A stretch of DNA of 64,000 bases. It comes from Escherichia coli. GTDB lineage: Bacteria; Pseudomonadota; Gammaproteobacteria; Enterobacterales; Enterobacteriaceae. The stretch is from NCBI RefSeq assembly GCF_003334255.1, contig NZ_QOWU01000015.1. One strand, 5' to 3'. The notes beneath the pieces are model-generated. The model was not told the DNA's origin, searched no databases, and saw only the letters and a list, made by a program, of their open reading frames with translations. Positions 50,930-64,000 of the stretch are shown piece by piece. The position numbers were made by a program, and so were the translations under genes. Positions within the stretch are counted from its first letter, which is position 1. Each line of letters opens with the position of its first letter.

Positions 50930-51779
50930 TCAGGATTCCTGACGTAAATAAATAGCCCGATAACAAATACTCACCAGCACTGCACCGCCGATAATATTAC
51001 CCAGCATCACCGGGAGCAGATTGGCGGTAATAAAATGGCTGACCGTCAGAGCCGGAAAATTGTCTGCGCTACTGTGCGCCAGTTGCCAGAAGGGGGGGAG
51101 GGGCGAAATGGCGAATGGCAATGGCGAACGGAATCACAAACAAATTGGCGATACAGTGCTCAAAGCCACTGGCGACAAACAGGGTGATGGGCAAAATCAT
51201 GGCGACGATTTTGTCGCATAACGAACGCCCGCAATAACTCATCCACAGCGCCAGGCAAACCATCAGATTGCACATAATGCCGAGGCTGACAGATTCAGTA
51301 AATGTATGATGCATTTTGCCCTCGGCGCAGTGTAAAACCGCGACTCCCCACATCGCGTTTTCACTCATCACCAGCCCGGAAAACCAGATTAACAAACTGA
51401 AACAGGCAATACCTGCCAGATTACCGCAGGCCACCAGAAGTGCGTTAATCAGCCAAGTTCGCCAACTAATAACGCCCCGACTTTTTGCCATCACCGTCAT
51501 TACCGACGAGGTGAACAGGCTGGTGCCGCAAACCGCCAGCAAAATAAAGCCGAGTGTAAAGCAAAGGCCGCCCACCAGATGGGTTAATGCCTGTGAAGAC
51601 GGGGCATCGGCGATAACGGAAAGGTAAAAAGTAAATCCAATCGTCATAAACACGCCAGCGGACATCGCCATTAAAAAGACCGATACTTTGCTGCGGGCAA
51701 TTTTATGGGCAGCAATCCGTTCAGCGATTGCCGCTTTTCTGGCGCTCAACTGCAAGTCGAAAGAGAGTTTGTTTCTCAT
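50930..51779 (-). pseudogene. focB: focB (formate channel FocB) interrupted by a +1 frameshift
   Basis: Two overlapping minus-strand ORFs (51069-51779 and 50930-51121) together cover an FNT-family protein. They are joined by removing one G from the G7 run at 51092-51098. The span is 850 nt, where 849 would give an intact 282-aa protein. Confidence 0.75.
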
Positions 51780-53842: not shown

Positions 53843-54256
53843 TCACGCAATTTTTCTGGCCATCAGATAGATAGCCGGTTCCAGCACAATTTCATCCAAC
53901 AGATGAATGAATTGAATGCTACGCGCTTGCCACACAGACGTCGCGTCATCTGCCAGTGGCGCGAATGCCCGGGTCAACAGGGCGGTGTGGCTGGCGTCAA
54001 TAACAATCTCACCAAAAGTCATCACCCCCAGCATCTTACGTCGGGCTTGCTCCTCTTCGACCAGTGCAAGCCAATCTTCGTATTCCGTCAGTGGGCAGCG
54101 GAAGGCGACATTCAGACAATCAATCACGCCAACGTGATGACCGATAGCCAGCGAGTAATACATTACCTGAGAGCTGTGTTCCGGCATCTCGTCGCTACTG
54201 GCGACAAACTTTTTTCGCAGCGTCCAGAAAACAATTTCCCCGCACTCTTCAGTCAT
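53843..54256 (-). CDS. hyfJ: HyfJ (HycH-like hydrogenase maturation factor)
   Basis: 137 aa from ATG 54254-54256 ([11 protein letters not shown]). Confidence 0.85.
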
Positions 54257-55006
54257 GTAACCCCCTGAGTACGCGAAAGAGTTGCTGAACGATACTATTG
54301 AGACGTGGATCGTCGGCATCGCGCAACCAGGTGTTAACCCGATTTCCTGTAGGATCGTCGCTTAAATGGCGCAGGAGCCGATCGCAAATTTCTCGCCCCT
54401 GACGATAGCCCGCCAGCCGCCGCGCTTCTCGCTCAATGGCGATACGCTGTGATGGCGGGATCTGTGGCCACAACGGTTGCATAGTCACCCCGGTGGGATC
54501 GCGATAATCCACAGCGTGAATCTTCTGTTGCAGCAAACCGAGCGCCACGGCGAAACCGTGAATGGTGGCGGCCGGTGTTGGCGGGCAGCCGGGGATCCAA
54601 ACATCAATGGGGACAATGGTGTCGCTGCCGCCCCAGACGCTGTAGAGATCGTGGAAAATACCGCCGCCGACACCGCACGCGCCGTAGGAAACACAGATTT
54701 ATGATCGGGGGCAGACTCATACGCCCGAAGTGCAGGCATACGCATCGCCCGGGTGACTGCGCCAGTAAATAACAAAATATCGGCGTGACGCGGTGATGAA
54801 ACAACCTTAATGCCAAAACGTTCTGCGTCGAATACGGGGGTGATGGCAGCAAAAATTTCGATTTCACAGGCGTTGCAGCCACCGCAATCGACGCGATAAA
54901 CGTAGGCTGAGCGACGGATATCCTGTAGCAAATGCCGCTTCATATTTTGCGTTTGCTCGTCCAGCGTGATGGGCTGGCTGACATATTGCGTAAGCACTGG
55001 ACTCAT
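54249..55006 (-). pseudogene. hyfI: hyfI (NuoB-like hydrogenase-4 small subunit) interrupted by a -1 frameshift
   Basis: N-terminal ORF 54485-55006 (with [10 protein letters not shown]) leaves the conserved frame after ...YESAPDHK. The conserved continuation ([13 protein letters not shown]...IPGCPP...) is in the other frame and runs to the stop at 54249. A T3 run at 54698-54700 is one base short. The span is 758 nt, where 759 would give 252 aa. Confidence 0.75.
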
Positions 55007-55542
55007 AGCTGCTCCTTAGCCACCAGCGGTACATCTGTATCGTCGTTGAGCAGCGTCGCGCGTTGTTTGCACTCCGGGCAGACGCTCGCTTGCGCCCATA
55101 ACATTTCGCGGTTTTGTGGCGCATTTTGTTGCTGTGCCAACAATTCAGCAGCCAGTGCGACGGTTTTTTGCGGGGCAAACGGGCGTTCGCAACGGCTGCA
55201 ACGTTGTAGATGGAACGTCGCGCGGGTATAGAGATCGGCTTTATTGGTGACGGTCAGTTCAAAGTTATTGGTAAGCTGGATGGCTCTGGTCGGGCACACT
55301 TCTTCACAACGTCCGCAGTAAATACAACGCCCCAGATAGAGCTGCCAGGTGCGCGAATTTTGCTGGTCGTCGGTCTGGATAGTCAGCGCATTTGCCGGAC
55401 AAGCACAGGCGCCGCAGGCAATACATTGGCTGGGCATCAGGTCCGGTTTCCCGCGAAAGCCTGGGCTGACCTCCAGTGGCGCGAAGGGATATTTCACCGT
55501 CGCGGTTCCGGCGCGCATAATAGTTTTCAGTAACTTCAGCAT
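55003..55542 (-). CDS. hyfH: HyfH, 2x[4Fe-4S] ferredoxin-type subunit
   Basis: 179-aa ORF with [10 protein letters not shown] and [12 protein letters not shown] motifs. Confidence 0.93.
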
Positions 55543-55551
55543 CTTCTGTCC

Positions 55552-57219
55552 TTACTTCAGCGGCGAACGGTTACGATCAATGCCGTAGCGTTCGATCTCT
55601 TTATACGGCACGGTTTTTGACTGGCGCTTGCGCACATCTACCAGCGTCACACGGTCGGTACAGGAGTAGCAGGGATCAAGGCTACCGATAATCAGCGGTG
55701 CGTCAGAAACGGTATTGCCGCGCAGCATGTAACGCAACACCGGCCAGTTGGCGTAGGTGGCGGCACGGCAGCGCCAGCGGAACAATTTTTGGTTATCACC
55801 GAGCATGCTCCAGTGCACGTCTTCACCGCGTGGCGCTTCAACAAAGCCCAGCGCGAATGCGTGAGGTTTATAGCTAAAGCCTTCGGTCAGCAGTGGGGTA
55901 TCCGGCATGTTGTCGAGGGCAAATTCCAGCATTGCCAGCGAATCAAACGTCTCTTTGACACGGACCATCACGCGGGAGAAAACATCGCCGCCGGTAAAGG
56001 TAAACAGTGTTTTTGGAATATTGCCGTAGTCGGCGTAGGGGTGATCAAAGCGCAAATCACGGGCGATTTGTCGGTCGAGAATGCCAATGCCCTGAGTGCG
56101 TTGTTCCATATTCGGCGTAGCAAGCAGCATCTCTACCAGCTCCGACACGTCGGCGCGCATCTCGCGCACCAGTTTCAGCGTTTGCAGACGTTGCTCTTTG
56201 AGAATATCGCGGCGAACACCACCAATCAGATTCAGACCGTAGGTTTTACGCGACCCGATCAGCAATTCCGCCATCGTCATCGACTTTTCCCGCACGCGGA
56301 AAAATTGCATAAAGCCGGTATCAAAACCAACGAAATGGCAGGAGAGGCCAAGGTTAAGCAAATGACTGTGTAGCCGTTCGACTTCCAGCAGAATCGAGCG
56401 AATAGTATGTGCTCGTTGCGGCACCTCAATCCCCAGTGCATTTTCAACCGAATTGGTATAGGCCACACTGTGGGCAAAACCGCAAATCCCACACACGCGG
56501 TCCGATAAGAAGGTCACTTCGTTGTAGCCCATCCGCGTTTCTGCCAGTTTCTCCATGCCGCGATGGACATAAAACAGGCGGTAATCAGCATCGACAATTT
56601 GCTCGCCATCCACAAACAAGCGGAAGTGACCCGGTTCATCGGAGGTGATATGCAGCGGGCCGACAGGGATCACCCGCGCATCGCTGTTGCCCTCATTGAT
56701 AAACGGATACGTTTCGGAATCAGTCGTCGGTTCAGGGCGCAGTCGATAATCCATCGCATCTTTGCGCAGCGGATGCATATCTTCCGGCCAGTCATCGGGC
56801 AACACCAGGCGACGCTGATCCGGCAGGCCAACCGGAATCAGCCCGTACATATCGCGAATTTCTCGCTCGCCCCAGACCGCGGCAGGGACGCGCGGTGTGA
56901 CTGACGGAAACTCCCGACTGTCGGCATCGACCAGCGCCTTCACCACAATCCAGCATTTTTCGGCCCCTTCCATTGAAAGGGCATAATAAACCGCGTAATG
57001 ACCGTTAAGTGTCCGCTCGTCGTTGCCAAACAGGACCGGAAGCCAGCCATCATGTTGATAATAAAGATACTGTACAACGTCAGGCAGCAGATTGATTTTC
57101 ACCGTAATGGTGACCTGTTCAGGCGTTTGTCGCTCTTCATCCAGCACCGCGCCGGGGAACTGCGTTTTCAGGGCGGCGAGAATCGCTTCGCCACGATTTG
57201 ACGATGAATTAACGTTCAC
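55552..57219 (-). CDS. hyfG: HyfG, hydrogenase-4 [NiFe] large subunit
   Basis: 555 aa from GTG 57217-57219; N-terminal [10 protein letters not shown] and C-terminal DPCYSCTDR nickel-binding motifs. Confidence 0.95.
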
Positions 57220-58789
57220 TGTGTTTCTCCGAAACAGATGCGGTGCCTGAAGGCAAAAAATCATGCCAGGTGCTACGTTGTGCAGGCAGATCGTGCGTCC
57301 CTGAGAGGACTATAGTGGAAGCGCCCGCCAGGATCCTGATGACAGGTTGTGGAATATGCGTTCCCATCGCCAGCATCATGACCAGCAGAATCACCATTGG
57401 CGAGGTGGTCAACCAGCCGAGATCACCCCGGTTAACGGCCTGCGGCGGTTTCGCCATTAACACCCGCGCAGCCATCCGTACCAGGCCCGCCAGCACCAGC
57501 GTTAACAGCAATAACAGCAGGACGATAATCAGCAGGTGATTACGTGCCAGTCCGGCGGTAATGGTCATAAATTCGCTAAGAAAAATGTTGAAGGGCGGCA
57601 TCCCTGCCAGCGCCAGCGCACCGCCGCCAAACAGCACGGCGGTAAATGGCATGATTTTGAGCATCCCACAGACGACGTTGAGATCGCGCGTGCCGTACTT
57701 GAGCAGTACATTGCCGGAACCGCAGAACAGCAGCGTTTTTGCCAGACTGTGGTTTAAGATGTGCAGCAGCGCGGCAAAAATTCCCAGCGGCCCGCCAATG
57801 CCTAGCGCCACCGCGACCAGTCCCATGTTCTCCACGCTGGAGTACGCCAGCAGACGCTTAATGTCCCGCTGTACCAGAATGAAAAATGCCGCCACGGCAA
57901 CCGACAACATGCCGAAGATGAGCAACAACCGGTTGGGGAAATCGCTGCCGATGGCCTGGCAAATAATGATGTAATAGCGAATCAGCACCAACAGCGCGCA
58001 GTTCAGCAATACGGCGGAGAGTAGGGCGCTGACCGGACTCGGCGCTTCACTGTGAGCATCCGGCAGCCAGGCGTGCATGGGAAATAGCCCGGTTTTGGTA
58101 CCAAAGCCAATTAGCACAAACACAAAGGCCAACAGCATTAATGTTGGATCAAGCAAGGACGATTGCTTAAGAACCTCGCTCCAGAATATCGCCATTTCTG
58201 CCTGCGGCATAACGCTGGCGGCGTTGGCGTATACCAGCACGGTACCGAACAGACCAAAAGCGACACCAACAGTACAAATAATGATGTACTTCCATGCAGC
58301 TTCCAGCGATGAACGCTGACCGTAAATGCCTACCAGAAACGCCGAGCTTAAGGTGGTGGCTTCGATCGCCGCCCACATCACAATCAGGTTATTGCTGGTA
58401 ACAACCAGCAGCATGGTGAACAAAAACAGATGGAAGAAACCGTAGTAATCGCACAGCGTAACGGGTGAAAGCTCGCCGTGCTCCACTTCATGACGCATGT
58501 AGCCAATCGAGTAAACACCGGTGAGAAAGCCAATCACACCAAGAATGGCGAGGAACAAACCGCCCAGACCATCAATATGAAGCCACAGTCCCGCAGCGAA
58601 TATTTCTCCTGCATCAGCGGCAGTTTGGACCACCCAGAGTGCCAGAATCAGCAGCAGTGTGATCCCTAAGCTATGTAATACGGTCACCGTACAAGTCGCA
58701 GAGAGCCTCCGTTTCCGGCAGGCAAAACAGAGCAGCGAAAAAAGCAGCGGCGTGAGCAGGAGTAAAGCGAACATCACAGAATAACTCAT
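57209..58789 (-). CDS. hyfF: HyfF, NuoN/L-like antiporter-type membrane subunit
   Basis: 526-aa multi-TM ORF. Confidence 0.93.
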
Positions 58790-58793
58790 CTCA

Positions 58794-59444
58794 TTATCCC
58801 TTCAGCGCGGTCAAGTCGTTCACGTCCAGCGTGCCGTGGGTACGCCATATTTTTCTTGCCAGTAACACCATCACAATGACGGCGAAGATGGCGTCGGTAG
58901 CGATACCTATTTCCACCAGTTCCGGTGCTCGCCAGGCAAGAAGCGCCAGCACCAGATGGGAGCCGTTTTCCATCAGGCAGTAACCAAAAATTTGCCGCAG
59001 GATATTGCGCTGGCTGACAATGCACAGCAGGCCAAGCAGAAAATGACCTAACGCTACCGCCAGCGCCGGTTTCAGCCCGGTAGCCATCGGTAGCTTCACG
59101 GGCTGAACGACAAATGCGCAAAGCAGGACAATTAACGCCGCGAGCAGTGCCATCATTGCCGGACCGAATAACGCTTTTTCCGGGATGTTCTGGGGAATAT
59201 TTCGTGCAGCGTAAGTCATGATTAACGGTACCAGCAGCACTTTGGTGATAAAGGCGCTGGCGGACCAGATCAGCAGTTGCTCTGCGGCGAACAGGCACGA
59301 GAGGGTGGCGAAAATAGACACCAGCACCAGTGACTGGCAGGCGTAAAATCCGCATGACAGGCGATAGCTTTTGACGCTAATCACAAACAGCGATGTCAGC
59401 ATCATCAGTCCCGCCAGATTATTTACGATCATAGAACCGGTCAT
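58794..59444 (-). CDS. hyfE: HyfE membrane subunit
   Basis: 216-aa multi-TM ORF. Confidence 0.9.
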
Positions 59445-59455
59445 TCATCATCTCC

Positions 59456-60895
59456 TTACTGCAACCAGGTCGCGGCGATTACGCTGGAAATCAGCGACAT
59501 CACAATCAGTACAATCAACACCAGGCGCATTGATCCTGGCAGCGGTGCGGCATCGGCGACGGCCTCGCTCGGTTTGCCAGGCACAACGCGACCAAACCAG
59601 CGAATAAACCAGGCGAAACTGGCGACCGATTCAATCATCAGCAGAATCAGGGCGGGCAGCAGGATCCAGTACTCCACTGACAACGCAAAACCGGCAACAA
59701 ACAGCGGGAATTTACTGAAGAAGCCGTTGAACGGCGGTACGCCGGTAATCGCCAGCGCTACCACGCAGAAACCCACGCCTGGCAACGGCAGGGTGTGCAA
59801 TACGCCACGCAGACGCGGCAACAAGCGCGTGCCGCAGCTGTAACTCAGCGCACCTGCTACAAGGAAAAACAGGCTTTTAGCGAACGCGTGGTTGACGATG
59901 TAGGCGATGCTACCCTCCAGCGCCAGCCGCGAGCCGAAGATGGAGAGCGACAAGCCGAAGAACATCCAGCCAAGTTGAGTGATGGTCGACCAGGCCAGCA
60001 ACCGCTTCATATCCTGCTGTGGCAAATACATCAGGAAGCCATAAAGAATGGTGACCAGCGCCATGACCATGCCAACGCCGCCAATCACATGCGGGATATT
60101 GCCGCCGTCGATAATGGCGCGGGCAAAAATGTAAACGCCCACTTTCACCATCGATGCGGCGTGGAGATAAGCGCTGATCGGTGTTGGCGCTTCCATTGCA
60201 TCCGGTAGCCACGCTTGCATCGGTAGCTGGGCCGATTTCCCCCACGCGGCAAACAGGATGCCGCCATAAACCAGATAACGTGCGTCGCCGTGTAACTCGC
60301 TCATCGCGCTAAGCGCAAACGTTCCGGTCTGCAAAAACAGCGTGGCGGCGGCAAGATACAACCCCAACGAACCGATATGGGTGATAAGCAACGCTTTTAG
60401 TGCTGAACGCTGCGCTTTATCGCTCTGATAATAACTGATCAACGCCCAGGAGCAGCCGCCCGTAATTTCAAAAAACAACAACTGACCGAGCAGCGTCGAG
60501 GAGAGTACCAGTCCCGCCATCGCGCCGATAAACACCAGCAAAAATGCGTAATAACGATTCGTGCCGTTATGCGGGTGTTCGCGATTTTTATCCGTCAGAT
60601 AACCCGTGGAGTAGATCGTGACCAGCAAACCGAGAAACACCACCACAAACAGAATCAGCGTACTCACGCGATCAATGACCAGGCCAAACAATGCCACATC
60701 CCCCACGTTGACCAACGTCAACGTGACGGCAACTTTATCGGCCTGATAAAACGCGGAGATCAGCGACAACATGCACAGCGTGGTCAGCGCGGCGAACAAA
60801 ACCCCCCATTCGGCGGCCCGACGTTGTGGCGAAAACGAAACGACCAGTGCGCCGATAAAAGGCAGCATTAACGTCGTCAGAGCAAGATTTTCCAT
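59456..60895 (-). CDS. hyfD: HyfD, NuoM/L-like antiporter-type membrane subunit
   Basis: 479-aa multi-TM ORF. Confidence 0.93.
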   Translation of the reverse strand: MENLALTTLMLPFIGALVVSFSPQRRAAEWGVLFAALTTLCMLSLISAFYQADKVAVTLTLVNVGDVALFGLVIDRVSTLILFVVVFLGLLVTIYSTGYLTDKNREHPHNGTNRYYAFLLVFIGAMAGLVLSSTLLGQLLFFEITGGCSWALISYYQSDKAQRSALKALLITHIGSLGLYLAAATLFLQTGTFALSAMSELHGDARYLVYGGILFAAWGKSAQLPMQAWLPDAMEAPTPISAYLHAASMVKVGVYIFARAIIDGGNIPHVIGGVGMVMALVTILYGFLMYLPQQDMKRLLAWSTITQLGWMFFGLSLSIFGSRLALEGSIAYIVNHAFAKSLFFLVAGALSYSCGTRLLPRLRGVLHTLPLPGVGFCVVALAITGVPPFNGFFSKFPLFVAGFALSVEYWILLPALILLMIESVASFAWFIRWFGRVVPGKPSEAVADAAPLPGSMRLVLIVLIVMSLISSVIAATWLQ

Positions 60896-60911
60896 ATTCC
60901 GTCAGTGCTCC

Positions 60912-61859
60912 TTACAGACCGGTTAACCAGAAGACCCATGCAAGCGCAGCAAGGCTGAAGCCAAGCCAGGTCACATGGTGAATGAGTAAAAAACGCCCGC
61001 GTGCCAGCGTGTTTTCTGCGATTGAGGCCAGTACAAAAATCAGCAAAACCTTGAGCAGCGTAACGACAAGTGAAGTCAGCAGGCAGGCGAGAGAAAGTTC
61101 TTGCGCGCGCCCAAAGGGCAGAAACAGGGCCACAAACAGTGCTGCCATCACGACCTGTTTCAGCCCCAGCCCCCATTTCGCCAGCGCCAGCCCGGCACCG
61201 GAATATTCTGTCAGCGGGCCTTCCTGTAATTCCTGTTCTGCTTCAGCAACATCAAAGGGAATTTTTCCCATCTCAATGAAGCAGGCAAAACCACAGGCCA
61301 GTAACGCCAGTACGGTGGTTAGCGGCGAGTTCCAGCCCATCGCCAGCGTATTGCTGATCATCTCGATATGCGTGGAATCCGCTATCAGTGCCAATACCAG
61401 CAGTGAGAGAATAAGCATGGGTTCGACCAGAATGCCGAGCGTCAACTCGCGACTGGCACCGACTCCCGCAAACGGACTTCCGGTATCCAGCCCGGAAAGA
61501 GCAAAGAAAAAACGAAACAGGGCAAGAAGATAGATAAGGGTGATCAGATCGCCGCCGCCCGCAAAAGGGGAAACGGTAATAAATAGTGGTAGGGCCATCG
61601 CCAGCACCAGCATGCTGCTGATTAATACCCAGGGCATCAGGCGGAACATCAGACCTGAAGATGTCGGCGCAACTTCCTGGCGTTTAAACAGTTTGTGGAT
61701 ATCGCGATAATCCTGCCAGATCCCCGGTCCGCGGCGGGAGTGCATTCGCGCGCGTATCTGCCGGGAAATACCCGTAAAAAGTGGGGTTAGCATCAGCAGA
61801 ATCACGGCCTGTGCTAACGCAAAAATGACCAGATATCCGTCGCAAAGAGTTTGTCTCAT
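60912..61859 (-). CDS. hyfC: HyfC, NuoH-like membrane subunit
   Basis: 315 aa from ATG 61857-61859 (MRQTLCDGY). Confidence 0.93.
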   Translation of the reverse strand: MRQTLCDGYLVIFALAQAVILLMLTPLFTGISRQIRARMHSRRGPGIWQDYRDIHKLFKRQEVAPTSSGLMFRLMPWVLISSMLVLAMALPLFITVSPFAGGGDLITLIYLLALFRFFFALSGLDTGSPFAGVGASRELTLGILVEPMLILSLLVLALIADSTHIEMISNTLAMGWNSPLTTVLALLACGFACFIEMGKIPFDVAEAEQELQEGPLTEYSGAGLALAKWGLGLKQVVMAALFVALFLPFGRAQELSLACLLTSLVVTLLKVLLIFVLASIAENTLARGRFLLIHHVTWLGFSLAALAWVFWLTGL

Positions 61860-61869
61860 GGTGATTTCC

Positions 61870-63887
61870 TTAGACGGCAATAGCGATTAGCAGCACAACC
61901 AGTGCGGCGACCACATACAGGCAATAGAGACGAAAGTCGCCGCTTTGCAGATGCTGTATTTCTTTGGCCAGCCGTTGGGTGGCGCTCACGATGGGGCGGA
62001 TCACCCGCTCATCCCAGAAGGGTTCTGTGCTCTGAGCCCTGGCGGTGACGTGCGCAAGACCTTTATTTAGCCTCAGCGTAGGGTCGAGCTGTTGTCGTAG
62101 ACGAAATAGCGCAGAGAAGACCACACGCAGCGGCTGCATCACGCCATTGCCTGACGGGGCCATCGCATTTTCCCAGCCGTAGCCGCATGCCCAGGCATCT
62201 CCTGTGCGACGAAACGCTGCGCGGCGCGAACGACACCACAGCCAGTAAAGGCCAGGCAGCAAAGGCATCGCCAGTAGTAACAGCAACAGTAATGAGGAGG
62301 TTACCTGTGTATGAAACGTGCCGGGTACAAGAGCTATTCCGCTGGCGACAGTGACGGGAGGGGTATTGGTAAACGCATGGGCAATATGCATTATCTTCGG
62401 TGCCAGCCAACTGGCACTAAGCGCAATTAATACGCAGAGTGCCGCGAGCAGTAGCATGGCGACGATCATCGTATTTGGCACTTCCTGTGCCTCTTCAGCG
62501 TGTGTACTGCGCGGCGCACCACAGAAAGTAATACCGTACATTTTGACGAAGCACATTACTGCCAGCCCACCAGTGACTGCCAGCATTACCATAGCAATAG
62601 GACCCGCAAGTTGTAGCGCTACGGCTTCCACACGACTTAGTGAGAACAGCGACTGCCAGGTGTACCATTCGCTGATAAAACCATTCAGCGGAGGAATGGC
62701 TGATATCGCGAGGCAACCAATCAGGCATGCTGCGGCTGTCCACGGCATCCGTTTCGCCAGTGCCCCCATTTTTTCCATGTCGTGGGTATGCAAACGCGAA
62801 ATAATCGCGCCCGCGCCGAGAAATAGCAGCCCTTTGAACAGCGCATGGTTGAGCAGATGAAACAGTGCGCCGAGCAGTCCAACCACGGTGAGCAGCGGGT
62901 CGTGCAGTGACAGACCGTCCATCGCCACACCGACTGCCAGCAAAATAATGCCGACGTTTTCGACGGTACTCCAGGCCAGCAGCCGTTTGATATCCTGTTC
63001 CGCCAGCGCATATAGCACGCCCAGGAGCGCGGAGATTGCGCCGATCGCCATCACCAGAATGCCCCACCACAGAGGCAAACCCGTTTGCGCCAGCAGATCC
63101 ATCGCTACTTTCAGGATGCCGAAAATACCGATTTTGACCATTACGCCAGACATCAACGCCGAAGCGTGCGATGGTGCGGCAGGGTGAGCGCGCGGCAACC
63201 AGCTGTGCAACGGTATCATCCCGGCTTTCGCGCCAAAACCGAAAAAGGCCAGCAGAAACACCGCCGACGCCAGCCCCGGAGAAAGTGAAAGCGTGCGAAA
63301 CTGGCAAAATCGAGGCTGCCGCTTTCGCGCCCCATCAGCAAGAAGGCGATCATAATCAGCACCGATCCGGCGTGGGCGATAAAAAAGTAGAGCATGCCAG
63401 CGTTGATCGACGTTTTATCCTGCCTGGCAATGACCAGAAACCAGGAAGACAGCGACATCATTTCAAACAGCACGATGAACCAAAAAGCGTTGTCCATCAC
63501 CAGCAGGGCAACCATCGATGCGATGAAAAGATTCATAAAGAAGCCCATCGCCGCCGCGCCTTTGCCCTCGTATTCGCGCATATAAGTCAATGAATAGAGC
63601 GAACAAACCACCACCAGCAAGGAGATAACCAGCACCATAAATGCCGAGAGGCTATCCATTCGCAGGGTTAAATCGGCAAAGTCAAAAGGGGTGGCAAAAT
63701 GGGCGACTAAAGTTACACCAGCATGTAATTGCGTAATTCCGCTGATGATGCCAATCACGCCGCCCACCAGCGATGTGATGCCGGAAAGCTTAATAGCCAG
63801 TCTGTCCAGACCGAGTAAAAACAGCGAAGCCAGACTGGCAAACAGATAGAGGATCAGCGACCAGGTTAATAATTGCAGGGCATCCAT
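61870..63887 (-). pseudogene. hyfB: hyfB (NuoL-like hydrogenase-4 membrane subunit) interrupted by a -1 frameshift
   Basis: N-terminal ORF (ATG 63885-63887, MDALQLLTW...) and C-terminal ORF (stop at 61870) are in different frames and overlap near 63260-63300. Total span is 2018 nt, where 2019 would give 672 aa. The most likely site is gcgaaa at 63296-63300 (one base missing). Confidence 0.75.
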
Positions 63888-64000
63888 TAGCGTTGCTCCT
63901 GAGTGAGGGAAAGGGGATCCTCCCATAAGCGCTAACTTAAGGGTTGTGGTATTACGCCTGATATGATTTAACGTGCCGATGAATTACTCTCACGATAACT

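Follow-up and report, generated by a model that had tools for sequence, protein, structure and literature searches.

A frameshifted hyfB allele, probably old and of single origin, in the eroding Escherichia coli hydrogenase-4 operon

The hydrogenase-4 gene hyfB is broken by a single-base deletion in the window analysed here, a stretch of 64,000 nucleotides from Escherichia coli, and the identical deletion is common in the species. We consider it very probable (about 0.93) that the lesion is an old loss-of-function allele that arose once and has been inherited within an eroding hydrogenase-4 operon. It behaves as an inherited pseudogene would, as it disables a frame that is intact in orthologues, is shared by descent together with a linked marker, and is accompanied by further lesions in linked genes.

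The frameshift and the identity of the gene

Two minus-strand frames stand where an intact hyfB would have one, namely 63216..63926 (236 amino acids, with the C terminus GSLDFASFARFHFLRGWRRRCFCWPFSVLARKPG) and 61870..63261 (463 amino acids). Their products match consecutive parts of NF005086, an NCBIfam equivalog model for hydrogenase 4 subunit B with a cut-off of 667 bits: the N-terminal ORF corresponds to profile positions 2-211 (245 bits), and the C-terminal ORF to positions 213-668 of 669 (700.5 bits). NF005958 and NuoL models also match both fragments, and the gene occupies its place in the order hyfA-B-C-D-E-F-G-H-I-J-R-focB. These consecutive matches and the conserved gene order bear out the naming of the gene as hyfB in the initial annotation, and matches to PF00361 and PF00662 do the same for the NuoL-like nature of its product. 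In the intact K-12 HyfB, PF00662 spans residues 72-108 and PF00361 residues 136-425. The K-12 gene (b2482) is the orthologue of the window gene, with the same operon position, the same Pfam domains and ~99% DNA identity (20 substitutions in 2018 nt); the window differs from it in lacking one C, in a frame that ends at codon 224, and in an upstream hyfA that is cut by IS421. HycC of FHL-1 and the NuoL-type subunits of complex I belong to the same fold family (PF00361/PF00662), but they are paralogues of HyfB.

From the ATG at 63887 to the stop at 61870 the gene measures 2018 nt, as against 2019 nt in MG1655, so that the span is indeed 1 nt short, as had been claimed. Nucleotide alignment to MG1655 hyfB, which had been proposed as a check, yields 20 substitutions and one indel, a single 1-nt deletion. 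Placed by alignment with MG1655, G1/2 and w264, the lesion is the loss of one C of the CC pair that occupies positions 591-592 of the MG1655 gene, in codons 197-198. On the plus strand GG has become a single G, the surviving base being window position 63297, which falls within the interval 63296-63300 where the site had been expected. The frame is left after codon 197 (Phe) and meets a stop codon at codon 224 (63216-63218), with the remaining ~1340 nt out of frame, and the break lies inside PF00361. The single frame of ~672 codons that would mark an intact gene is interrupted by this stop. Since sequence and gene order place the gene in the HyfB family and an intact frame is lacking, we classify it as a hyfB pseudogene (Table 1).

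The second frame reads FRTLSLSPGLASAVFLLAFFGFGAKAGMIPLHSWLP and runs on to the native stop, exactly as had been quoted, and the break does fall within the conserved antiporter domain PF00361. The two ORFs of 236 and 463 codons are likewise present, but the former figure is 13 codons too many for the N-terminal fragment. The true N-terminal fragment starts at 63887 and has 223 codons, and the ATG of the 236-codon ORF (63926-63924) consists of the last two bases of the IS421 end followed by base 1 of the duplicated target. The GTG of the 463-codon ORF is a mere start in the ORF list; the listed ORF is the open portion, from that GTG, of a C-terminal part whose correct frame runs on from the deletion site.

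Table 1. Features of the hyf region in the window (positions are those of the whole stretch)
Feature	Coordinates	Strand	Details
focB pseudogene	50930..51779	-	C6 to C7 at 51092-51098; stop codon 237 of 282
hyfI pseudogene	54249..55006	-	AAAA to AAA at 54698-54700; stop codon 174 of 252
hyfH	55003..55542	-	6-nt in-frame deletion between 55413 and 55412; frame open
hyfC, hyfD, hyfE, hyfF, hyfG	55552..61859	-	full-length open frames
hyfB pseudogene (hydrogenase-4 / FHL-2 membrane subunit B, NuoL/HycC-like)	61870..63887	-	MG1655 alignment, NF005086
hyfB C-terminal part, shifted frame	61870..63296	-	RTLSLSPGLAS... to native stop
hyfB N-terminal frame	63216..63887	-	197 native codons + 26 out-of-frame codons ARFHFLRGWRRRCFCWPFSVLARKPG
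hyfB frameshift site	63297..63298	-	coding strand TTTCCGC to TTTCGC
IS421 target-site duplication, 12 bp	63913..63924	.	GGGAGGATCCCC
IS421 (IS4 family) right end	63925..64000	.	in hyfA 3' end; extends past window

Frequency and descent of the deleted allele

We surveyed 5426 complete E. coli genomes with an 80-nt probe of the hyfB site, counting as deleted those that matched over the 80-nt span of the record, the others spanning 81 nt. About 4293 of the genomes carry hyfB, while 1133 (~21%) gave no match to the probe. The exact deleted form was matched by 1255 genomes, and 2493 have the exact intact 81-nt form; about 546 have neither exact form, an example being O157:H7, which has the intact length and a SNP. 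The deletion is thus present in ~29% of hyf-bearing genomes (1255/4293) and in ~23% of all complete E. coli genomes. E. coli G1/2, G6/7 and G8, which come from faeces of healthy people in Germany, match the window at 100% identity, both over the hyfB region (2131 nt) and over 25 kb (38000-62999), and PGAP calls hyfB 'frameshifted' in G1/2 and in each other carrier inspected. That hyfB might be naturally split in this lineage had been put forward as evidence that would speak against a frameshift. Such a split hyfB does occur in the lineage, but it counts only against a reading as an artefact or a strain-specific lesion, and the frameshift itself stands.

The origin of the allele can be examined in a 14-sequence hyfB alignment with nine carriers (the window, represented also by the identical G1/2, w264, O177:H21, NCTC122, APEC20/16, 503025, A1_181, S1-CAM-01-C and TK3896). 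The synonymous marker 633T accompanies the deletion in 9/9 carriers and is found in 0/5 non-carriers. This common possession of marker and deletion argues for a single origin, and indicates, on sequence grounds, that the deletion arose once, in an ancestor. Three hyfB loci annotated in RefSeq as 'frameshifted', namely H4P46_RS06310 of G1/2, BB405_RS19445 of O177:H21 and CKV98_RS06645 of NCTC122, carry the identical deletion and 633T; the lesions that accompany it vary by strain, whereas the hyfB lesion itself is the same. An independent 1-nt deletion occurs in LR-50 at position 406, with a stop at codon 143, and since it lies at another site, E. coli must have lost an intact hyfB on more than one occasion.

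Descent is not the only route by which the allele has travelled. NCTC122 and S1-CAM-01-C have the deletion haplotype upstream of a recombination breakpoint within hyfB, at positions about 675-759, and are identical to K-12 or nearly so (0-1 substitutions per gene) downstream of it through focB. Since these two strains are K-12-like from about position 759 and yet carry the deletion haplotype, the allele has also moved by recombination.

The variants private to the carriers are unevenly placed along the gene. In the 14-sequence alignment all 20 of them are found downstream of the frameshift, between positions 633 and 1980. The 590 nt upstream of it contain none, against about 6 for an even spread. 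Unsampled donor haplotypes or recombination may be the cause. Nine of these variants are nonsynonymous and 11 are synonymous, a ratio that suggests relaxed constraint, though not clear neutrality, in a sample that is small and mosaic through recombination. Also, outside the window, the ypfJ-purC interval contains a vapBC toxin-antitoxin pair in five of the seven carrier loci with full flanks; the pair is absent from this position in NCTC122, S1-CAM-01-C and four control loci with an intact site.

Lesions elsewhere in the operon and the IS421 insertion

Two other genes of the operon are pseudogenes in the window, hyfI and focB, both of which are 'frameshifted' in G1/2 according to PGAP. The hyfI of APEC20/16 also stops at codon 174, but two programs place its deletion at different positions, so that the two lesions are possibly, but not necessarily, identical. 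The insertion that extends C6 to C7 in focB is found in LR-50 as well, and four other strains have a 1-nt deletion nearby, at position 691; taken together, the same insertion in LR-50 and the nearby deletions in four strains make the C-rich tract of focB look mutation-prone. In hyfH, a 6-nt deletion between short direct repeats, which is common to the window, APEC20/16, 503025, TK3896 and LR-50, shortens the first ferredoxin motif from CxxCxxCxxxCP to CxxCxxCxCP, and it probably damages the [4Fe-4S] site.

The lesions that accompany the hyfB deletion in the other carriers comprise hyfD, hyfF and focB in O177:H21, hyfD, hyfG, hyfI, hyfR and focB in APEC20/16, hyfD, hyfF and focB in 503025, hyfD and focB in TK3896, hyfD in A1_181, and hyfD together with IS421 in w264. 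For NCTC122 and S1-CAM-01-C, the lesion table and the annotation reveal no further lesion in the operon, which means that operon decay is not universal among carriers. Decay is also seen in genomes without this particular deletion: OW1E2 has lesions in hyfC and hyfD, and LR-50 has lesions in hyfC, hyfD and focB besides its own hyfB deletion at position 406, with a deletion at position 293 of hyfC and one at position 93 of hyfD among the lesions found in these two strains. All twelve genes of the operon are open in K-12, O157:H7 ATCC 43888 and SX12.

Several further observations concern hyfD and hyfG. A 1-nt deletion at position 93-94 of hyfD recurs in seven genomes, with and without the hyfB deletion, and points either to an old null allele that has recombined or to a hotspot of mutation. 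Several strains lack a stretch of about 210 nt in hyfD, while the hyfD of the window is intact. The hyfG of the window (55552-57219) is 100% identical to that of MG1655 over 1668 nt, whereas the flanking hyf genes differ by ~1%, and such identity amid diverged neighbours is, by sequence comparison, a recombination mosaic. Position 1156 of hyfG is the site of a 48-nt in-frame insertion in O157:H7, O177:H21, 503025, TK3896 and OW1E2.

Upstream of hyfB, the 3' end of hyfA is interrupted by IS421. The copy in G1/2 is 1337 bp long and is bounded by perfect terminal inverted repeats of 22 bp; the transposase gene that it carries is on the opposite strand from hyf. Bases 63885-63924 of the window are the displaced last codons of hyfA, whose TAA overlaps the hyfB ATG. 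With the insertion, HyfA ends in GGEDPHKR in place of GGEDPLSLTQEQR, its tail LSLTQEQR being replaced by HKR, and hyfB-focB are separated from the hyfA promoter. The IS421-hyfA junction is present in only 44 complete genomes, which makes the hyfB deletion far the more widespread of the two. The two junction genomes that were inspected, G1/2 and w264, also carry the hyfB deletion. We considered the IS421 insertion as the primary event and rejected it on a comparison of these counts (44 genomes with the junction and 1255 with the deletion).

Consequences of the lesion and alternative explanations

We propose that the CC pair at codons 197-198 lost one C in a single event, in an ancestor of the carriers, and that the allele then spread by descent and by recombination between backgrounds. 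Translation would leave the frame inside the antiporter domain and end at codon 224, so that no full-length HyfB would be produced, and, given that the break lies inside PF00361, functional HyfB would not be made. The ~1.3 kb of untranslated message, together with IS421 between the hyfA promoter and hyfB, would be expected to lower the expression of the downstream genes. Both loss of function and polarity are what we infer for the hyfB allele from its sequence. Published work suggests that the hydrogenase-4 complex would be inactive as a result. In Pectobacterium, deletion of hyfBCDEF brought the hydrogen output of FHL-2 down to about 5% (PMC7384014). Moreover, FHL-1 of E. coli is inactive without HycC, the homologue of HyfB (PMC7384014), which supports the idea that the loss of HyfB is disabling. 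The native hyf operon of E. coli is also poorly expressed and lacks an accessory gene (PMC7384014). That the operon keeps eroding may be explained if hydrogenase-4 is dispensable in the carrier lineages. The FGB2 lineage has lost the hyf operon altogether (PMC6896753), and the 1133 genomes without a match to the hyfB probe fit this published loss.

A different explanation retains the same lesion and ascribes its frequency to selection favouring the loss of Hyd-4, not to mere tolerance of that loss. It would account for the abundance of null alleles in several hyf genes and for whole lineages that have no such operon. The independent hyf lesions in LR-50 and OW1E2, which lack this deletion, the genomes without a probe match, and the arrival of the hyfB null allele in K-12-like backgrounds by recombination are all points in favour of such selection. 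However, nothing here separates selection from drift and hitch-hiking; the genome collection is a biased sample of clones, and K-12, O157:H7 and SX12 retain an intact operon. On balance we regard selected loss as unlikely, and more doubtful still is the idea that the hyfB null and the erosion of hyf are kept frequent because being without the Hyd-4 membrane arm is of benefit in certain niches of the gut.

It would be tempting to see in the shifted frame a case of programmed or tolerated -1 ribosomal slippage, in which tRNA-Phe, paired with UUC in AG-U-UUC-GCA, would re-pair with the UUU that overlaps it. Slipping by -1 at U_UUC would make CGC ACG CUU the next codons and would restore the native ...ASFRTLS... 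exactly, and two carriers, NCTC122 and S1-CAM-01-C, keep their other hyf genes intact. Nevertheless, the checks of heptamer, downstream structure and conservation were all negative. There is no X_XXY_YYZ heptamer at the site, where CC AGU UUC GCA permits only the single-tRNA slip at U_UUC. The downstream 107 nt fold with a minimum free energy of -37.9 kcal/mol, and shuffled versions average -38.2 kcal/mol (z = 0.10); folding equal to or better than that of the real sequence was seen in 103 of 200 shuffles. No Shine-Dalgarno-like stimulator was seen upstream of the shift site. The unshifted hyfB is the majority state in E. coli, so that the shift is not conserved, and the consecutive match of the two ORFs to the HyfB profile indicates that the intact gene is ancestral. 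In addition, most carriers, the window included, have disabling lesions in partner genes. The sole likeness to programmed -1 frameshifting of the dnaX type is that a -1 slip gives a meaningful product; hyfB has neither the heptamer nor the stimulatory structure nor the conserved shift. We therefore rejected programmed frameshifting, which these results make highly improbable. A reading less likely than the advantage in gut niches is that trace amounts of the full-length protein arise by low-level -1 slippage at U_UUC in otherwise intact carriers, for example NCTC122.

Equally improbable is a functional split gene, whose N-terminal part of 223 residues and C-terminal part of roughly 460 residues would be made separately and assemble. 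Both frames are open throughout in 9/9 carriers, and the C-terminal ORF alone exceeds the HyfB cut-off (700.5 versus 667 bits). Against this, the break falls inside the PF00361 core, and the N-terminal product bears a 26-residue out-of-frame tail. A well-spaced Shine-Dalgarno sequence is missing before the GTG at 63261, where a GGGG ends about 14 nt upstream, and a start at this GTG would drop residues 198-209. Moreover, the partner genes are decaying. Domain position, partner-gene decay and the absence of any convincing signal for a restart together led us to rule this reading out.

Finally, a sequencing or assembly error that conceals a true CC and an intact hyfB has practically no chance of being correct and is ruled out by population frequency and linked marker: a single-base indel is the commonest assembly error, but the site is a dinucleotide without a long homopolymer, the identical allele comes from 1255 complete genomes of many laboratories and hosts, and in all 9 carriers examined the deletion comes together with the private SNP 633T. 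Because these genomes were assembled independently and RefSeq annotates the gene as 'frameshifted', the matter is settled and the resequencing that had been recommended is needless.

The inherited null allele that we favour is thus not new as an object, since a hyfB pseudogene is already known from RefSeq/PGAP annotation in many genomes, although no paper on a hyfB frameshift or pseudogene allele in E. coli was found among the titles and abstracts consulted. For basic biology the allele carries little weight, being one more pseudogene that had already been flagged. It matters more for studies of hydrogenase-4/FHL-2, as the carriers, ~23% of complete E. coli genomes, have an operon that is probably genetically dead. 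It has long been held that the contribution of Hyd-4 in E. coli is small. A common hyfB null of single origin, many independent lesions in other hyf genes and the ~21% of genomes without a probe match lend genomic support to the notion that Hyd-4 is minor in E. coli.
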